Positions 31,460-39,922 of a stretch of 64,000 nt of DNA are shown piece by piece. This DNA is from Syntrophales bacterium (GTDB lineage Bacteria; Desulfobacterota; Syntrophia; Syntrophales; PHBD01): assembly GCA_963668175.1 (NCBI GenBank), contig OY764159.1, positions 4,192,001-4,256,000 of the forward strand. Reading direction: 5' to 3'. Made by a program: the position numbers and the translations under genes. The notes under the pieces are model-generated. The model was not told where the DNA came from, made no database searches, and worked only from the letters and a program-made list of their open reading frames with translations. Within the stretch, counting starts at the first letter, position 1. Every line of letters starts with the position of its first letter.

Positions 31460-33973
31460 ATGACCTGGGAGCTTATCCTGCCTTTTGTTGAAAAACCGAG
31501 CCGTTATATCGGTACAGAAATTAATGCCGCCAGGAAAGACCGGCAAGCCTGCCGCCTGAGTTTTGCCCTGGCCTTTCCCGACAGCTACGAAGTGGGGATG
31601 TCTCATCTGGGCATCCAGATTCTTTATGCCATCCTGAACAGCCGGCCCGAGATCGTCGCCGAGCGCTGCTACGCCCCCTGGCCCGATATGGAACGCCAAA
31701 TGAGGAGCCACGGCCTTTCCCTGGCATCCCACGAATCCCACACGCCCCTGCACGCCTTCGACGTGGTCGGATTTTCGCTCCAATACGAATTATCTTATAC
31801 CAACGTCCTCAATATGCTGGATATGGGCGGCATTCCCCTGAGAAGCGCGGACCGCACGGAGAATCATCCCTTGATCGTCGCGGGCGGGCCTTGCGCGTTT
31901 AACCCGGCGCCGATGTCGGCCTTTATGGATGCCTTCGTGATCGGCGAAGGGGAAGAGGTCGTACTCGACCTCGCCGACACGGTCATGAAGGAAAAAGCGA
32001 AGGGCAGAAGCCGGGGGAGCATACTGGAAGCCCTGGCAGCCATAGAGGGCATCTATGTGCCGGCCGTTCATAAGGGGAACGAAACCATCAGGAAGAGGGT
32101 CATTGCCGATCTGAATGCATGGTTGTATCCGGCGAGCCCCCTGGTCCCTCTCATGAAGACGATACACGACCGGGTGACCCTGGAAATAGCCAGAGGCTGC
32201 ACCCGCGGCTGCCGTTTCTGCCAGGCGGGCATGGTATGGCGGCCCGTCCGCGAAAGAAACCCGGAATCCTTGAAAAAGATGGCCGATCAGATGTTGTGTT
32301 CGACGGGCTACGATGAGCTTTCCTTGTTATCGTTGAGTTCAGGGGACTACAGCCTGATCGAGCCGCTGTTGTCCGACCTGATGGAGCGCTACTATCACCG
32401 ACGGATTGCCATCGGACTGCCGTCGCTCCGCGCAGAAACGCTGAAAGAGCGGTTGATCGAAGAAATCAAGCGCGTTCGGAAGACAAGCTTCACGCTGGCT
32501 CCGGAGGCCGGCACCCAGCGGCTGCGCGACGCAATCAACAAGGGCAACAGCGAAGAGGACCTTCTGGCAACGACGGGACGGGTTTTCGATGCGGGCTGGA
32601 AATCGGTGAAACTCTATTACATGCTGGGACTGCCCGGCGAAACGGAAGAGGACATGGAAGGAATCGTCGACCTCAGTTACAAGGTTCTGAAGACCGCCAG
32701 AAATCGCGGCCAGGTGACGGTCAGCATGTCCACCTTCGTCCCGAAGGCATTCACGCCTTTTCAATGGAACGCACAGATCTCATTGGAAGAAACGCGGCAG
32801 AAGCAGGATTACTTCAGAAAACGTCTCAAGCACCGCAACCTGAACGTGAAATGGCACGATGCCCGGATGAGCGTCCTGGAGGGCATTTTCGCCCGGGGCG
32901 ACGAGGAGACGGGTTTGCTCTTTGAAGACGCCTTCCGCCGCGGATGCAGGTTCGACGGGTGGACGGACCGGTTCCGGCATGACCTTTGGGAAGAGGCCGT
33001 TCGCGACAGCGGGCTGGCCGTCGATGCATGGCTTAAGTCCAGGAACCTGACGGACAGACTTCCCTGGGACAGGATCGACTGCGGTATCGATCGCCGTTTT
33101 CTCGTTTCCGAATTGGAAAAATCGGCCGCTCGCGAATCAACGGCGGATTGCCGCACCGGCAAGTGCCATCAGTGCGGCGTATGCGATCACATCAACATTC
33201 GTCCGCTGACCGCCGATGCATTACCCGCTTCGAATACGGACCGGCCGCTGCCCCGGACGGAGGCTTCGGCTGGGCAATCATCTTTGCTGACAGGCCGTTT
33301 TCTCCTCCAATTCGCCAAAACGGGCTTGTCCCGCTTTCTTTCCCATTTGGAATTGTCGTCATCCTTGATCCGCGCCATCAATCAGAGCGGTTTGAATTTC
33401 GTCTTTTCGCAGGGTTTCCACCCCCATCCGAAAATTTCCTTCGCCTGTGCGACGTCCGTGGGCATGGCAAGCGAGGGGGAATTCGCGGAGATACAGATAC
33501 AGAGGCATTCAGAGCCCATCGAGAAGATCCTGCAAAGGATCAACGCCTTCCTGCCAGCGGGCGTTGAAGTCCTCACCTTCAGACCCATCCCTTCCTATGG
33601 CCGTTCATTGTCCGAGACGGTCACCGGTTTCGAATACCGCGTCGTTCTGCCCGATGCTGTGCCCCGAGAGGGACTGCCGGCCATAACGGAGCAAATCTCT
33701 GCTTTTATGGCCAGCCGGGAATGGGTTGTCGTCCGGGAAGCGAAAGGAAAGGCCTCCACCAAAAATATTCGCCCGCTGGTGAAAGCATTGACTTTGGAGG
33801 ACGACGCGATTATACGGATGATCGTCGATTTCGGTCCGGAGGGATCGGTGAAGCCCTCGGATATCCTGACCCAGGTTCTCAAGCTGAATCAGGAACTGGT
33901 AAGAACGATGTGTATCGTGAAAGTCGGAACGCTTTTCCGCGAAGAGACAAACACCGGAACATCATGTCCATGA
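31460..33973 (+). CDS. TIGR03960-type B12-binding radical SAM protein fused to a TIGR03936/DUF2344 domain
   Basis: VEKPSRY.G.E, FPD.YEVGMSHLG, RGCTRGCRFCQAG, C..C..CGVC linker, F.K.G..RFLSHL, FSQGFHPHPK. Confidence 0.9.
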   Translation: MTWELILPFVEKPSRYIGTEINAARKDRQACRLSFALAFPDSYEVGMSHLGIQILYAILNSRPEIVAERCYAPWPDMERQMRSHGLSLASHESHTPLHAFDVVGFSLQYELSYTNVLNMLDMGGIPLRSADRTENHPLIVAGGPCAFNPAPMSAFMDAFVIGEGEEVVLDLADTVMKEKAKGRSRGSILEALAAIEGIYVPAVHKGNETIRKRVIADLNAWLYPASPLVPLMKTIHDRVTLEIARGCTRGCRFCQAGMVWRPVRERNPESLKKMADQMLCSTGYDELSLLSLSSGDYSLIEPLLSDLMERYYHRRIAIGLPSLRAETLKERLIEEIKRVRKTSFTLAPEAGTQRLRDAINKGNSEEDLLATTGRVFDAGWKSVKLYYMLGLPGETEEDMEGIVDLSYKVLKTARNRGQVTVSMSTFVPKAFTPFQWNAQISLEETRQKQDYFRKRLKHRNLNVKWHDARMSVLEGIFARGDEETGLLFEDAFRRGCRFDGWTDRFRHDLWEEAVRDSGLAVDAWLKSRNLTDRLPWDRIDCGIDRRFLVSELEKSAARESTADCRTGKCHQCGVCDHINIRPLTADALPASNTDRPLPRTEASAGQSSLLTGRFLLQFAKTGLSRFLSHLELSSSLIRAINQSGLNFVFSQGFHPHPKISFACATSVGMASEGEFAEIQIQRHSEPIEKILQRINAFLPAGVEVLTFRPIPSYGRSLSETVTGFEYRVVLPDAVPREGLPAITEQISAFMASREWVVVREAKGKASTKNIRPLVKALTLEDDAIIRMIVDFGPEGSVKPSDILTQVLKLNQELVRTMCIVKVGTLFREETNTGTSCP

Positions 33974-35334
33974 ATTCGGACGCATCCAGAGAGAAAGCTG
34001 CAACGATAACGGCAAAGCTTCACCGTGCGGGTTATGAAGCCTACTTTGTGGGGGGCTGTGTCCGCGATATGGTCCGCGGCGTACCGCCCGCGGATTATGA
34101 CATCGTGACCTCGGCGCTTCCGGAACAGGTCCAATCGCTTTTTCCAAGAACCATTCCGGTCGGAGCCGCTTTCGGCGTCATCCTTGTCGTTGAAGACGGC
34201 CATCCGTACGAAGTAGCCACATACCGAACGGAGCACGGATACGAGGACGGACGACATCCGTCTCAGGTGACGTATTCGACGGCAGAGCAAGACGTTCTTC
34301 GGCGGGACTTTACGATCAACGGACTGCTCATGGAACCTGAATCGGGACGGGTCATCGATTACGTGGGGGGCGTTGCTGATATCGAGAACAGGATCGTCCG
34401 CACGATCGGGGACCCGGAAGAACGCTTCACGGAAGATCATCTCCGTATGATCAGGGCCGTAAGGTTTTCGGCCAATCTTTCCTATGGCGTCCACCCGGAA
34501 ACGCTGCAGGCGATCAGGAAAAACGCGCCGCTTGTCCGGAGAATCAGCCGGGAACGTATCCGGGAAGAGATGACCAAGATCCTCACGGGGCGCGGAGCCC
34601 GCTCCGGGGTGGAGATGCTGGCAGAATCGGGCATCCTCAAGGAAATCCTTCCCGAACTCGTCGCTTTGCAGGGCGTTGAGCAACCGCCATTCTACCATCC
34701 GGAAGGCGACGTATGGGAACACACCCTGCGGATGCTCTTCATCCTGTCCGAATCGGCCCCGACCGATCCCAGGCTCGCATGGGCCGTTGTCCTCCATGAC
34801 ATCGGCAAGGCGGTGAGCCGCTCGGAAGACGACGCCGGCGTTCATTTCTACGGCCACGTCCAGACGGGAAAGGAGATTGCCGCAGCGATCCTCGAACGTC
34901 TGAGGTTTTCACGAAGCGACCAGGAAACGATCATGGCCCTGGTTCAGGAGCACATGAAATTCATGCACGTCCGCGACATGCGCCCCAGCAAAATCAAACG
35001 CTTCATCAGGAAGGCCGATTTCGACCTCCATCTCGAACTGCATCGTCTCGACTGCCTCGGGAGCCATGGCATGCTTGACAACTACGAATTTTGCCGCGGG
35101 AAGCTGGATGAATTCACGGTGGAGGAACTCCATCCGCCCAGGTTACTGAACGGCGACGATCTTATCGCCATGGGTTTCCTGCCCGGGAGGCACTTCAAGG
35201 AGATTCTCCGGGAGTTGGAAGACGCCCAGTTGAGCGGTCAGGTTCACTCTACGGAAGAGGCCCGTACCCTGGTCATGACCCGATACGGCGGACTGCTTCC
35301 CGAACCGGACGGACGGAAGGTGACGCCGTCGTGA
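33964..35334 (+). CDS. cca: CCA tRNA nucleotidyltransferase with HD domain
   Basis: VGGCVRD, DYDIVT, RRDFTIN, EDHLR; HPEGDVWEHT...HDIGK. Confidence 0.9.
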   Translation: MSMNSDASREKAATITAKLHRAGYEAYFVGGCVRDMVRGVPPADYDIVTSALPEQVQSLFPRTIPVGAAFGVILVVEDGHPYEVATYRTEHGYEDGRHPSQVTYSTAEQDVLRRDFTINGLLMEPESGRVIDYVGGVADIENRIVRTIGDPEERFTEDHLRMIRAVRFSANLSYGVHPETLQAIRKNAPLVRRISRERIREEMTKILTGRGARSGVEMLAESGILKEILPELVALQGVEQPPFYHPEGDVWEHTLRMLFILSESAPTDPRLAWAVVLHDIGKAVSRSEDDAGVHFYGHVQTGKEIAAAILERLRFSRSDQETIMALVQEHMKFMHVRDMRPSKIKRFIRKADFDLHLELHRLDCLGSHGMLDNYEFCRGKLDEFTVEELHPPRLLNGDDLIAMGFLPGRHFKEILRELEDAQLSGQVHSTEEARTLVMTRYGGLLPEPDGRKVTPS

Positions 35335-35374: not shown

Positions 35375-36721
35375 TCAATAACCGGTTTTTTGAGAATCCC
35401 TGCTGCCGACGACGGTCATACCGATGATGTCGCTCAAATACCCTTTCCCGCGTCTATGCCTTTTGGATTTCACTCCCGGCTGGAGGGTTGTGACGGCGGC
35501 ATGCCCGACAATCTGTCTGCTGCTTTTCTTTCGGGTCTTCTTGTCCCGGGCACTCCAGAAATTGTGAAAAACGAGAATCTCCCCATTGTAACTGCCCATA
35601 TAGAGCATGATGTGCCCCTTGACCCAAAGCAGCGTCATGTAGGGAACGCCTTCTTTGAGAATGATCTTCTCTTTATCTTTCGAGGGAACCTCCCGGAGGT
35701 CGATGAACGATCCTCCCTCCAGAGCCTGATTCTTGGAGTTTCTCGGCATCCATATGCCGAAAGGCACGAACAGGTCCATGATCATGGCGGAACAATCCCT
35801 GTTCTGATAAAGCCCTCCCCATCCGTAGGGTTCATTGATAAGCTCGTTGGCAACCATGGCCATGTTGGTTCGGGTCAGCGGTAAAGGCTTCAGGGCAACG
35901 GCATCCGCCGGAACCACGGCCTTTTCAACGACGGCCCTGCCTGTCTGATTCGCAACGGCCACCGCAATATTCCGTTTCTTGCCGTCGGTACTTTCGCCTT
36001 CGTCCGGAAACAGGGTACCGATAGGCGCATTGAACAAATGCCGGCCGTTCTCGTCATAGATGGAAAGCTTGTCCTTAATCGGAACGACAAATGGTCTCTC
36101 CTTCCATTGTCCGATGAAATCGGCGTCGACGCGGGCCACGTCCTTGGCCGGAAGCCAGCCGTATGTATATCCGGTCTCGACGAAGACCCAGGTCCTGTCT
36201 TTCGTCCAGTGTGACAGATAGACGGGGGTGTTGACGTAAATGGCCGACTGCTGGAAATTATCGAAGGGATAGGTACAGCGTCCTGTTTCGCAATGGTTGA
36301 AATGGGGCCTCCGCGTGGGCAATACCCTCAAGTCCGAATTTGCTATGGCGATGCCCCTGCCTCCGCCGTTGGGAAAACTTTCCAGGTCGATATTTTCGGC
36401 CAGGGAATCTATCCATTCGAGGCTGTGTTTCCTGAGATTCTCGCCGTAGCCCGGATTATGGCGATAGATTTTCAGCTCTTCTTCGATTTCCGCTTTTGTA
36501 TAGCGCGGTTTTTCACAGGTCCAGGGTAAAAAATACATTTTATTGAAAACCGCATCCATCCTCTGCTGCTCTTCCCGAGGCGCCAATTCCTGAGTAGTCG
36601 ATATCTTGTCAAGATAGTAGCGGTGATCCTGCTTTAAAACGCGGATATCCCGAATGACGTCGGACGATCCGAAAAGACCCGATATTATTAACAGCCAGGC
36701 AATCCCGTTATGATAAAACAT
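35375..36721 (-). CDS. SH3/NlpC-P60 cell-wall peptidase (YkfC-like)
   Basis: PYGWGG...RDCS, PRNS..Q, GHIMLY.G, FHN. Confidence 0.88.
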   Translation of the reverse strand: MFYHNGIAWLLIISGLFGSSDVIRDIRVLKQDHRYYLDKISTTQELAPREEQQRMDAVFNKMYFLPWTCEKPRYTKAEIEEELKIYRHNPGYGENLRKHSLEWIDSLAENIDLESFPNGGGRGIAIANSDLRVLPTRRPHFNHCETGRCTYPFDNFQQSAIYVNTPVYLSHWTKDRTWVFVETGYTYGWLPAKDVARVDADFIGQWKERPFVVPIKDKLSIYDENGRHLFNAPIGTLFPDEGESTDGKKRNIAVAVANQTGRAVVEKAVVPADAVALKPLPLTRTNMAMVANELINEPYGWGGLYQNRDCSAMIMDLFVPFGIWMPRNSKNQALEGGSFIDLREVPSKDKEKIILKEGVPYMTLLWVKGHIMLYMGSYNGEILVFHNFWSARDKKTRKKSSRQIVGHAAVTTLQPGVKSKRHRRGKGYLSDIIGMTVVGSRDSQKTGY

Positions 36722-36929
36722 GAGTGTTTCCCGATTCGCAGTCTAAATATTCATCATGGCCGATTTATTGCTTATTTTAACACAAGACCCTATGAACGGC
36801 AAACGTTATAAATGAATGGCAATACTGAAGAAAGACTGTTATATTATAAGGGTAGATAAAATTCGCAGAATTGAACTTTTTGGAGACCGCTCCTGTTTCC
36901 TGAAAAGACAACAGCTGAGGAGGAATGAC

Positions 36930-37145
36930 ATGGATGAGCAGGTATTGATTTATGGAAAACAGGGGTGACCTTACACGGATATGGCCAGGTCGGTCTATGG
37001 AAAGAGGGCTCTGTTCATCGATGTGAAATTGGATGGCGCAAAGCTTAAGGAGATGCTGAAATTATCCGGTGGATCGAGGCAGGTACCCGTTATCGTCGCC
37101 GCCGGCAAGGTGACCATAGGTTACGGCGGCTCTTGAGGCGTATAA
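36930..37145 (+). CDS. Glutaredoxin-like selenoprotein with two Sec (UXX-star type), 71 aa
   Basis: Not in ORF track. GAGGAGG SD, then MDEQVLIYGKQG-U-PYTDMARSVYGKRALFIDVKLDGAKLKEMLKLSGGSRQVPVIVAAGKVTIGYGGS-U-GV*; TGA at 36966 and 37134. Confidence 0.88.
36979..36998 (+). promoter_or_regulatory. SECIS-like hairpin for Sec13
   Basis: ATA-T(bulge)-GGCC-AGGTC-GGTC-TAT, starting 11 nt after TGA; loop and bulged U resemble the E. coli fdhF SECIS. Confidence 0.75.
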
Positions 37146-37146
37146 A

Positions 37147-37165
37147 GACCTCCCGTCGGGAGGTT
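37147..37165 (+). promoter_or_regulatory. SECIS-like hairpin for Sec69
   Basis: GACCTCCC-GTC-GGGAGGTT, starting 11 nt after the second TGA, in the 3' UTR. Confidence 0.65.
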
Positions 37166-37325
37166 GTGTCCGGGCGCGAGTGTGGGCCATGAGCCGGTTT
37201 TCACTTCGTTAAAACGTATTATTTTATAATGAGTCTTTCCCCTAATCCGTTGACAAAAGGCGGCCGACGTAATAAATAGTGCAGGGAGGACAAGACTTGA
37301 AATCAAACAAGGAGGTCTAAGTTAT

Positions 37326-37832
37326 ATGTCGGATGAAACCAAAACGATAAATCAGGCCGTAAAAGCGATGGTAGACAAAGAAGGAAAATATCTGACCTTC
37401 TCGCTCGCCGGAGAGGAATACGGTATCGGGATATTGAAGGTGAAAGAGATTATAGGAATGATGTCGATTACCATGGTCCCGCAGACGCCGGTGTATATGA
37501 AAGGGGTCATTAATTTAAGGGGCAAGGTCATCCCTGTCGTCGATCTCAGGATTAAATTCGGGATGGACCCCATCGAATATAACGAGCGAACCTGCATCAT
37601 CGTAGTGGAAATCAGCGGCGAAGGCCGAACCATTCACATGGGCATCGTCGTCGACTCCGTCTCCGAAGTATTGAATATAAAGGCTGCAGACATCGAAGAG
37701 ACACCGAACTTCGGTACTCAGCTCAATACGGAATATATTCTGGGCATGGCCAAATCGGCAGGAGGGATTAAGATCCTCCTCGACATCGATCGCGTCCTGA
37801 GCACGGAAGAAATTGCCGGTATGACGAAATAA
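37326..37832 (+). CDS. cheW: Chemotaxis coupling protein CheW
   Basis: KYLTF.L..EEYGI.I.KVKEII, KGVINLRGKVIPVVDLR, GIVVDSVSEV. Confidence 0.95.
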   Translation: MSDETKTINQAVKAMVDKEGKYLTFSLAGEEYGIGILKVKEIIGMMSITMVPQTPVYMKGVINLRGKVIPVVDLRIKFGMDPIEYNERTCIIVVEISGEGRTIHMGIVVDSVSEVLNIKAADIEETPNFGTQLNTEYILGMAKSAGGIKILLDIDRVLSTEEIAGMTK

Positions 37833-38030: not shown

Positions 38031-38900
38031 ATGTGTGAAAATGCCGCCTCCTCCGATAACCTGCCGAAACTGAAGTCTGAAAACATCGGCGACATTCATC
38101 TCACCTACCTCGATTATGAAACCCAGGGACCGCCCCTGGTATTTTTGCACGCGACGGGGTTTCTGCCCTGGCTTTGGCATCCCGTCGCAAGAAGACTCAC
38201 TGCTGCTTTCCATTCGATCGCCCCGTACTTCTGCGACCACAGGGATTCCAATCCCCGGACCGGCGCCATGCACTGGTCGACATTGGCGGAAGATTTAAAG
38301 TCCCTTTGCGACCGGCTCCGCATAGAAAACGGTTTTTTTGTGGGACATTCCATGGGTGCGACCGTCCTGACGATAGCCGCCGCATCGTACGGGTTGAAAC
38401 CGAAAGCGATGATCCTGATTGAGCCGATCTACCTCCCCGGCGATTTCTATACAAGATCCATCACCGTCGAAGAGCATATCCTCGCCTCGAAAGCCTTAAG
38501 GCGCAGGAACGACTGGAGCGATGACGACGAAGCACGGCAATACCTGGAATCGCGCGACCTGTTCAAAAACTGGGATGGCGAAGCACTCGATCTTTACATC
38601 CGGCATGGATTGACTGAACGCGGCAACGGCAGGCTCCAGCTCGTATGTTCCCCCCAGAGAGAAGCATCATTGTTCATGGGCGGCGTTCACGAAGATCCCT
38701 GGCCTCTCCTTCCCCGCGTCCAATGTCCCGTCCTCGTCATCGAGGGAGAAACGAGCGACAACAAAAAGTTCATAGATCTCAAGAAGGCTTCGTCACTGTT
38801 TCCGAAAGGATCGTACAAGCTTGTAGAAAGCGTGGGGCATCTCATCCCGATGGAGAATCCCCAAGCCGTCATCCGGATTATCGACGACTTTTTTAAATGA
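38031..38900 (+). CDS. Alpha/beta hydrolase
   Basis: LVFLHATGF, GHSMG nucleophile elbow, GHLIPMENP; start 38004 or 38031. Confidence 0.9.
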   Translation: MCENAASSDNLPKLKSENIGDIHLTYLDYETQGPPLVFLHATGFLPWLWHPVARRLTAAFHSIAPYFCDHRDSNPRTGAMHWSTLAEDLKSLCDRLRIENGFFVGHSMGATVLTIAAASYGLKPKAMILIEPIYLPGDFYTRSITVEEHILASKALRRRNDWSDDDEARQYLESRDLFKNWDGEALDLYIRHGLTERGNGRLQLVCSPQREASLFMGGVHEDPWPLLPRVQCPVLVIEGETSDNKKFIDLKKASSLFPKGSYKLVESVGHLIPMENPQAVIRIIDDFFK

Positions 38901-39922
38901 AGGCGCTTCTTCTGACCCCTACCTATTTTCCGCTGCTGACGGGAAATGCCGTCACTGTGGACCGTATCGGTAAACACTTGACGCAATCCGGCATAGCGTC
39001 AACCACACTCAATCTGTCCGAATTAAGAAGCAAGCAGGTGATTCGAACGGCCGAACTTTACCAGCCGGACATCGTTCACGCATTTCACGCCTATAAGTCA
39101 GGCCGCATCGGCCTTCTCGCAAAAGACAGAACAGGGGCTTATCTTATTACAACGATGACAGGAACCGATCTTAACGTCGATTTGAAATCGATGCGGAAGA
39201 GAAGGGCGATTATCGACGTCCTGGATCATTCGGACGCAATAACCGTCTTCAATGAAGCTGCGAGGGAAATTCTTTTACAGGCAAATGTCCCTGAAGAAAA
39301 AGTAACCGTCATTCACCAATCCGTATCTCTTCCCGAAACCCCTTTTATCGATTTTCGCGAGAATTGGAAGATCCGTCGCGATGCCGTAGTTTTTCTCGCC
39401 GTCGGTGCTATAAGGAAGATCAAGAATATAGGGCTCGCTTTTCGGGTTCTGCAAGATTTGAAATGTTGCCTCCCTCAAATTCACTTGATCATCGCCGGCC
39501 CCGTTATCGAAGATGATGCCTTACAAGAACTCCTTTCGGATACAGCCGGCAAAGACTGGGTGACGTATGCAGGTGTTGTGGCCAGAGAAAATATCCGCTC
39601 GCTCTTTCTTTGTGCCGATATTTTTTTGAACACCTCCTTTTCAGAATCCGAAAGCAATGCCATGCTGGAAGCAATCAGTTGCGGGATGATCGTCATCGGT
39701 AGGGATATTCCCGGCAACAGCTCCCTACTGACGGAGGAAACAGGCCTTCTGTTTACGAATAAAAAAGACCTCATGCGGAAAATAATTTACGCCGTGGAAA
39801 ACATCGACAACATGAGGTCCATGCGGGAAAGGGCCGCAGCGCTTGCGTTTCGTGAGTTCGATCAAACGCGGGAACGAAACGGATATGTCGATCTGTATAA
39901 ATTGATAGCGAAAAAAGCTTGA
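38897..39922 (+). CDS. GT4-fold glycosyltransferase, SenB/GLT1D1-like
   Basis: TGNAVTVDR, AFHAYKS, TGTDL, VIHQS, GAIRKIKN, SFSE...AMLEA, DIPGN; ATGA overlap with the hydrolase. Confidence 0.8.
   Translation: MKALLLTPTYFPLLTGNAVTVDRIGKHLTQSGIASTTLNLSELRSKQVIRTAELYQPDIVHAFHAYKSGRIGLLAKDRTGAYLITTMTGTDLNVDLKSMRKRRAIIDVLDHSDAITVFNEAAREILLQANVPEEKVTVIHQSVSLPETPFIDFRENWKIRRDAVVFLAVGAIRKIKNIGLAFRVLQDLKCCLPQIHLIIAGPVIEDDALQELLSDTAGKDWVTYAGVVARENIRSLFLCADIFLNTSFSESESNAMLEAISCGMIVIGRDIPGNSSLLTEETGLLFTNKKDLMRKIIYAVENIDNMRSMRERAAALAFREFDQTRERNGYVDLYKLIAKKA

Follow-up and report, generated by a model that had tools for sequence, protein, structure and literature searches.

The gene and its surroundings

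We analysed a stretch of 64,000 nucleotides from a Syntrophales bacterium (the window). At positions 36930-37145, on the plus strand, there is a frame that encodes a 71-residue protein of the glutaredoxin fold when TGA is read as selenocysteine (Sec, U); the TGA codons are codons 13 and 69. The translation is MDEQVLIYGKQGUPYTDMARSVYGKRALFIDVKLDGAKLKEMLKLSGGSRQVPVIVAAGKVTIGYGGSUGV, followed by the stop. The features of the locus are as follows.

35375-36721, minus strand: gene for an NlpC/P60 protein of 448 residues with N_NLPC_P60, SH3b1 and SH3b2 domains, upstream and divergent
36816-36845, plus strand: promoter-like site (ATGGCA, 18-nt spacer, TATATT), 9 of 12 matches to consensus; weak, a possible promoter of the UXX-star gene
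36919-36923, plus strand: Shine-Dalgarno sequence GGAGG, 6 nt 5' of the ATG at 36930, seen directly in the sequence
36930-37145, plus strand: predicted coding sequence of a UXX-star family 1 selenoprotein, 71 residues, TAA included (translation; NF041114; Pfam Glutaredoxin)
36966-36968, plus strand: TGA, putative Sec13, which opens the U-P-Y-T active-site motif and corresponds in the alignment to the first Cys of the CPYC motif in glutaredoxins
36979-36998, plus strand: candidate SECIS 1, within the coding sequence; 3 bp, a bulged U, 4 bp and the loop AGGUC (minimum free energy structure)
37134-37136, plus strand: TGA, putative Sec69, third residue from the C-terminus (U-G-V-stop; translation, and TGA in 34 of 34 relatives)
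37143-37145, plus strand: TAA stop (translation)
37147-37165, plus strand: candidate SECIS 2, in the 3' UTR; 8-bp stem and the loop GUC, with no U-tract behind it (folding; covariation)
37326-37832: cheW, downstream of the UXX-star gene

Further downstream are genes for an alpha/beta hydrolase and a GT4 glycosyltransferase.

A sequence-only reading of this DNA had proposed a frame of 71 codons with TGA at codons 13 and 69, a GGS-U-GV-stop end and a Shine-Dalgarno sequence ahead of it. Translation of 36930-37145 reproduced the frame exactly (the codons after the second TGA are GGC GTA TAA), and GGAGG lies 6 bases before the ATG. The same reading had held that standard gene callers miss the gene. 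We found that the list of open reading frames made with translation table 11 contains just a 51-residue fragment (36981-37136). That is, a standard caller would miss or truncate the UXX-star gene, as had been claimed. The region contains two promoter-like sites and 1.5 were expected from shuffled sequences, so the promoter-like site is no evidence by itself.

Two further observations were made on the flanking genes. The GT4 glycosyltransferase (38897-39922, plus strand) had its best NCBIfam match to 'GPMC system family 4 glycosyltransferase (Geo_Pelo)', with 237.5 bits (cut-off 400), and a weak match to the selenoneine selenosugar synthase SenB (74.1 bits; cut-off 300). Both scores are below the cut-off and do not make the protein a member of either family. 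At 33721-35334 (plus strand) there is a gene for a 537-residue protein that resembles CCA-adding enzymes and poly(A) polymerases and has an HD domain. Its family matches do not start until about residue 85-106; the protein may have an N-terminal extension, or its start may have been called too far upstream.

The protein belongs to UXX-star family 1

The sequence-only reading had placed the protein among the UXX-star glutaredoxin-like (seleno)proteins. This assignment holds at the equivalog level: the protein scored 103.9 bits with the NCBIfam model NF041114, "UXX-star selenoprotein family 1" (cut-off 72), in an alignment that was full-length (residues 5-71 on positions 1-70 of the 70 in the model). 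The parent family, NF041212, gave 78.4 bits (cut-off 66). The protein has the U-x-x-stop end, the U13-P-Y-T16 motif and the glutaredoxin fold that mark a member.

Several results agree with the earlier description of the frame as glutaredoxin-like. Pfam Glutaredoxin (PF00462) matched with 29.2 bits (cut-off 22.9). An AlphaFold2 model made with 23 aligned relatives had a mean pLDDT of 86.2 and a pTM of 0.72, and the PDB entries that Foldseek ranked highest for this model were without exception glutaredoxins or NrdH-like proteins (TM on the query, 0.65-0.74; best E-value 1.4e-3, with none at or below 1e-3). A profile search of PDB sequences returned ordinary glutaredoxins only, aligned at positions 3-61 with a best E-value of 3.7e-7, and found no solved structure of a UXX-star family member. 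The classical equivalog models were far below their cut-offs (GRX_bact, 29.6 bits vs 90; GRX_euk, 21.3 bits vs 87.25).

A full-text literature search for "UXX-star" led to a 2026 review (PMC13188914). A table in this review lists the family as 'Distant Grx-like protein 1', with a UxxT motif and two Sec, citing Zhang & Gladyshev 2008; the phrase 'distant Grx-like' is absent from the main text of that paper. For other UXX-star families the review cites Haft & Tolstoy 2025 (mSystems). The window protein agrees with family 1, as tabulated in the review, in its U-P-x-T active site, its U-x-x-stop end and its two Sec, and no family-defining feature differs in the window copy. There are two differences in detail: Met18 of the window copy gives a bulged U or a U-U mismatch in the first hairpin where the family has a pair, and the gene for a cNMP-binding protein, found ahead of the UXX-star gene in 10 of 25 relatives, is missing here. 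The two-Sec glutaredoxin-like gene is thus already known, as a member of a named and catalogued selenoprotein family, and finding it here is a correct catch, not a discovery.

The genome encodes the machinery for selenocysteine

The genome consists of a single closed contig of 4.57 Mb, with a completeness rating of 100%. We found selA (605.8 bits; cut-off 267.9), selB (386.7 bits; cut-off 242.25), selD (391.4 bits; cut-off 125) and one tRNA-Sec (Rfam, 77.4 bits), which ARAGORN called as tRNA-SeC with the anticodon tca. The prediction that the genome should encode selABCD was therefore correct. A second Rfam match to tRNA-Sec, just above the threshold, is a tRNA-Ser and was set aside.

The selD gene, which lies outside the window (G000:C1:4129230-4130159), has one in-frame TGA. 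Since this TGA falls inside the full-length match, the selenophosphate synthetase of this organism is probably a selenoprotein itself.

The two TGA codons are conserved in relatives

We searched for relatives of the gene in other genomes. Matches to NF041114 above its cut-off were present in 32 of the 61 genomes from the same family and order, and in 70 of 301 from a sample of the phylum (own genome included in both counts); the own genome has one copy. The comparisons below use 34 relatives with a short tail, made up of 25 of the 30 loci from the family and order, two loci recovered with a looser pattern (L028 and L053) and 7 of the 9 loci from the phylum sample. Outside the counts are three loci that the pattern did not parse (L051, L077 and L078), an ambiguous one with CPFC and then GYGGA-TGA (L045) and ten paralogues with a long tail and a U/C-P-F/Y/H-C motif (L037, L052 and L054-L061). 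The relatives are kin, and counts across them overstate their independence.

Of the 34 short-tail relatives, 27 had TGA at codon 13 and 7 had a Cys codon, TGC or TGT (L024, L050, L074, L075, L076, L079 and L080). Classical glutaredoxins have Cys at this position, as judged from the profile search of PDB sequences. The C-terminal site was TGA in all 34, including the seven Cys13 forms; that is, none of the 34 had Cys at position 69. The Cys/Sec alternation expected of a selenoprotein was thus seen at codon 13, with seven Cys forms; at codon 69 the 34 relatives had only TGA, and the case for its translation comes from the codons that follow it. Identity to the window protein was 48-70% among relatives across many genera, and Thr16 was invariant in the 23-row alignment.

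The ten long-tail loci form a paralogous class in the same order. They have a U/C-P-F/Y/H-C active site and a longer tail of the type GG-T-U-x-V. In three of them (L055, L056 and L059), the frame is open and conserved (K-R-P-L-G-E-E) beyond U-x-V.

The neighbours recur in part. The divergent NlpC/P60 gene is found beside the UXX-star gene in many relatives (L024-L049). In the 10 of 25 relatives that have it, the gene for the cNMP-binding protein (161-184 residues) lies directly upstream on the same strand, between the NlpC/P60 and UXX-star genes, and ends 6-98 bases before the start. The other recurrent neighbours encode an HtrA-like protease, a rubrerythrin and a nitroreductase, all three downstream in some relatives. 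We found no orthologue of the cNMP-binding protein in the own genome (best match 20% identity, 27.5 bits), and this neighbour was dropped as an explanation of what the locus does.

Translation appears to continue past the second UGA

We compared the codons that follow the C-terminal TGA in 25 distinct aligned 3' ends of relatives. The codon after TGA was GGN in 22 of the 25 (GGC 9, GGG 5, GGA 5, GGT 3), and the next codon was GTN in 23 of the 25, with a variable third base. The third codon was a stop in 25 of 25 (TGA 13, TAA 7, TAG 5). Fixed first and second bases, a free third base and an invariant stop are the signature of translated sequence, which argues that TGA69 is not the end of the protein.

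In the 13 orthologues that have UGA as the true stop (L025, L027, L029-L034, L036, L039, L041, L047 and L048), this stop lies nine bases after the Sec-UGA and about nine before the SECIS loop. Within the footprint of a single SECIS, UGA would first specify Sec and then termination, an illustration of the tight distance dependence of decoding. The stop of the window copy is TAA, unlike that of these 13.

A candidate SECIS element follows each UGA

The sequence-only reading had described a hairpin 11 nt after each TGA. We found both hairpins, and each starts at the 11th base after its TGA and has its loop from nucleotide 22 (counting the U of UGA as 1), a spacing of 18 nt. In hairpin 1 the pairs are A-U, U-A and A-U, then the bulged U, then G-C, G-U, C-G and C-G. 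Since only two codons follow UGA69, hairpin 2 lies wholly in the 3' UTR.

The hairpins were compared with the consensus model of the bacterial SECIS (bSECIS) given in the legend to Fig. 2 of PMC13188914: a loop of 3-9 nt, a stem of 4-16 bp, 16-37 nt between UGA and loop, a G in the first two loop positions and a minimum free energy of -7.5 kcal/mol or lower. Element 2 agrees with the model throughout (loop 3 nt, 8 bp, spacing 18 nt, -12.0 to -14.9 kcal/mol). The geometry of element 1 is within the range (loop 5 nt, 7 bp with a bulge, spacing 18 nt), and its energy was -8.6 kcal/mol in a 45-nt fold that adds a lower stem and -4.5 kcal/mol for the hairpin alone. Both hairpins fit the published loop, stem, G-position and spacing rules as that legend gives them, which is consistent with the earlier proposal that each TGA has its own SECIS.

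Taken alone, the hairpins of the window are unexceptional; their weight comes from the relatives. The region after the first TGA folded no better than shuffled sequences (z +0.40 to +0.76), and 14.5% of shuffles had a core as good as the 4 bp of hairpin 1. After the second TGA, the folding z was -1.4, but a hairpin as good as the 8-bp one arose in only 0.5% of 200 shuffles. An Rfam scan of 36850-37300 gave no match at E-values up to 10; this is uninformative, because short bacterial SECIS elements need not be modelled there.

The comparative evidence for element 2 as a putative SECIS is strong. In a MAFFT alignment of the 25 distinct sequences, its 7-pair helix was 86.4% paired, compared to 64.1% in column shuffles, and 42 cells were changed on both sides, compared to 16.3 in shuffles. 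Neither value was reached in any of 500 shuffles, and registers slid along the alignment were only 31-46% paired. Of the 25, 23 had a perfect hairpin that starts 12-19 nt from the UGA and has a G in its loop, and the mean energy was -7.3 kcal/mol (-1.3 in shuffles). At least five T in the eight bases behind the stem were found in just 1 of 25 relatives, and a terminator scan found no terminator-like site in the window. Element 2 is thus not an ordinary terminator.

For element 1, the covariation signal is weak. The core helix was 96.7% paired, compared to 95.4% in shuffles, and 35 of 500 shuffles were as high; pairing is barely above that in shuffles because the hairpin sits in conserved codons (A-R-x-A-Y/F). 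There were two compensatory changes (C-G to U-A and G-C to A-U), both at wobble positions. In addition, a hairpin with a G-bearing loop from nucleotide 22 was found in 22 of 26 distinct Sec13 forms and in 2 of 7 Cys13 forms, with mean energies of -6.2 and -2.5 kcal/mol, respectively. The codon in the loop encodes Arg in 21 of 22 distinct Sec forms (one has Leu, CTG); 19 of the 21 Arg codons are AGG and two are CGG, and AGG makes up 11-20% of the Arg codons in long open reading frames of the window and the loci. Given the small numbers and the kinship of the sequences, we treat the contrast between Sec and Cys forms and the AGG bias as supporting observations, not as statistics.

Hairpin 1 had been likened to the SECIS of fdhF for its bulged U and its AGGUC loop. 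Both features are present, but the fdhF-like bulge is not conserved: columns 17 and 31 of the family alignment form a pair in 23 of 24 rows, so the bulged U is peculiar to the window copy. The details of the E. coli fdhF element are general knowledge, and our comparison is to the consensus bSECIS model. Both elements share with the fdhF type a small stem-loop behind the UGA and a G in the first two loop positions. Element 2 differs in that it is entirely in the 3' UTR, a property inherent to all U-x-x-stop proteins; in its text on bacterial SECIS elements, PMC13188914 describes them as residing in coding regions.

Taken together, the sequence and the comparison with relatives suggest that SelB with Sec-tRNA(Sec) would be recruited twice on one short mRNA. 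The site of the first recruitment would be the hairpin inside the coding sequence, with its loop 18 nt after UGA13, and that of the second the hairpin at equal spacing after UGA69, in the 3' UTR.

One or both UGA codons could instead be ordinary stops. If both were plain stops, the locus would be a decayed glutaredoxin pseudogene, and translation table 11 does give only fragments. However, the same two TGA codons are found in 27 relatives from many genera at 48-70% protein identity, and the genome has the full Sec machinery; we regard decay as extremely improbable. It is also conceivable that UGA13 alone encodes Sec and UGA69 ends a protein of 68 residues, with hairpin 2 a transcription terminator or a stabilising element. 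Hairpin 2 directly follows the gene, as a terminator would, and no Cys homologue marks position 69. Against this, a Gly-Val-stop with synonymous variation in the third base (22, 23 and 25 of 25) is unexpected in untranslated sequence, in 23 of 25 the distance of hairpin 2 to the TGA is fixed and its loop bears a G, a U-tract follows in only 1 of 25 with no terminator-like site, and the alignment to the NF041114 model takes in the tail, up to the last of the 70 model positions. A single Sec is therefore very unlikely, if not quite as remote as decay. Based on sequence and comparison, it is highly probable that 36930-37145 (plus strand) is a functional gene for a UXX-star family 1 protein of the glutaredoxin fold and that both in-frame UGA codons are read as Sec.

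A possible mechanism for the protein

We propose a mechanism in which Sec13 would be at the position of the nucleophilic Cys of glutaredoxins, with Thr16 in place of the usual resolving Cys. The Gly-rich tail, GGSUGV, would take the place of the ordinary C-terminal helix and fold back along Q51-V52, beside the cis-Pro. Sec69 would then bond to residue 13 of the same molecule (Se-Se with Sec13, Se-S in the forms with Cys13). The protein would thereby work as a two-electron shuttle that does not depend on glutathione and is returned to its reduced state by thioredoxin reductase or another flavoenzyme of this kind.

The structure model is consistent with parts of this mechanism. The chain ends eight residues after strand 4 (60-63), and the C-terminal helix of glutaredoxins is missing. 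DSSP assigned isolated two-residue strands at 51-52 (Q51-V52) and 69-70 (U69-G70), and from the DSSP string we infer that these two pair with each other, in a tail with a pLDDT of just 71-76 in a model from a 23-row alignment. In complexes of glutaredoxin with glutathione, the backbone of the glutathione cysteine pairs at the residue before the cis-Pro. A tail at this position would place Sec69 next to Sec13, and a diselenide between the two, as the sequence-only reading had put forward, is plausible.

The genome fits a route that does not need glutathione. We did not find gshA or gshB in the closed genome, so dependence on glutathione is unlikely, and a thioredoxin reductase is present (371.1 bits; cut-off 343.45). 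A point against the mechanism is that U-P-F-C paralogues in relatives also keep the C-terminal Sec. Thus, the tail Sec is not simply a stand-in for a missing resolving Cys.

On the structure model and these genes, we hold a glutathione-independent shuttle with an intramolecular Se-Se bond (Se-S in Cys13 forms) to be a fair guess and not yet a probable one. A little more tentative still is the specific suggestion that the GGSUGV tail would act as a built-in substitute for glutathione in the cis-Pro groove, with Sec69 bonded to Sec13.

It is also possible that both UGA codons encode Sec but that the selenols ligate a metal or metalloid, or carry a small substrate, with no diselenide cycling. This would fit the finding that the C-terminal Sec is never Cys (0 of 34), as expected if selenium chemistry itself is needed. 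One relative (L050) adjoins a gene for an ArsP-type permease, and PMC13188914, where it touches on UXX-star family 1, mentions a metal- or metalloid-binding role. On the other hand, no metal-handling gene is a conserved neighbour, and the fold and the position of the active site are those of a thiol-disulfide oxidoreductase. We judge this role unlikely; it is nevertheless the main rival to the diselenide shuttle.

Comparison with known redox proteins

The window protein has the fold, the position of the active site and the cis-Pro motif V-P-V in common with classical dithiol glutaredoxins (E. coli Grx3, PDB 3grx and 1fov; Clostridium oremlandii, 4tr1 and 7c10). It differs in having UPYT, with Thr16 and not the second Cys of CxxC, and in lacking the C-terminal helix; the PDB profile matches end at position 57-65 of 71, and the tail of the window protein adds a Sec. 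The UPYT motif, the missing helix, the GRX_bact and GRX_euk scores and the failure to find gshA or gshB do not fit a classical glutathione-dependent dithiol glutaredoxin.

NrdH-redoxins (PDB 4fiw and 1h75), which were among the Foldseek matches, are small proteins of similar size with the glutaredoxin fold. Their reductant is thioredoxin reductase, as proposed here for the window protein, and not glutathione. However, the NrdH model gave only 12.8 bits (cut-off 85.75), and NrdH has CxxC and no Sec tail.

The tail also brings to mind mammalian thioredoxin reductase. The Gly-Cys-Sec-Gly tail of that enzyme is flexible and is considered to exchange electrons with a buried redox centre. The likeness, a Sec near the C-terminus on a Gly-rich tail, extends only to the principle of action: the enzyme is unrelated in fold and size, and its SECIS is eukaryotic, in contrast to the bacterial-type hairpin 18 nt after the UGA here.

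Implications

The locus adds one real gene and one selenoprotein to the annotation of this genome, where calling with table 11 splits the gene into fragments, and it confirms that the organism uses selenocysteine. UXX-star family 1 is catalogued without an assigned function, and several comparative facts could guide biochemical study: the C-terminal Sec is never Cys; a putative SECIS in the 3' UTR and the internal one share a spacing of 18 nt; most Cys13 forms have lost the internal hairpin; and the host has no detectable genes for glutathione synthesis. If the proposed mechanism is true, the protein would be a self-contained redox shuttle of very low potential in a host that is apparently unable to make glutathione. 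In 34 relatives the C-terminal residue is never Cys and the active site is Sec or Cys, so the tail selenol, and not the classical active site, would be the chemically indispensable group.
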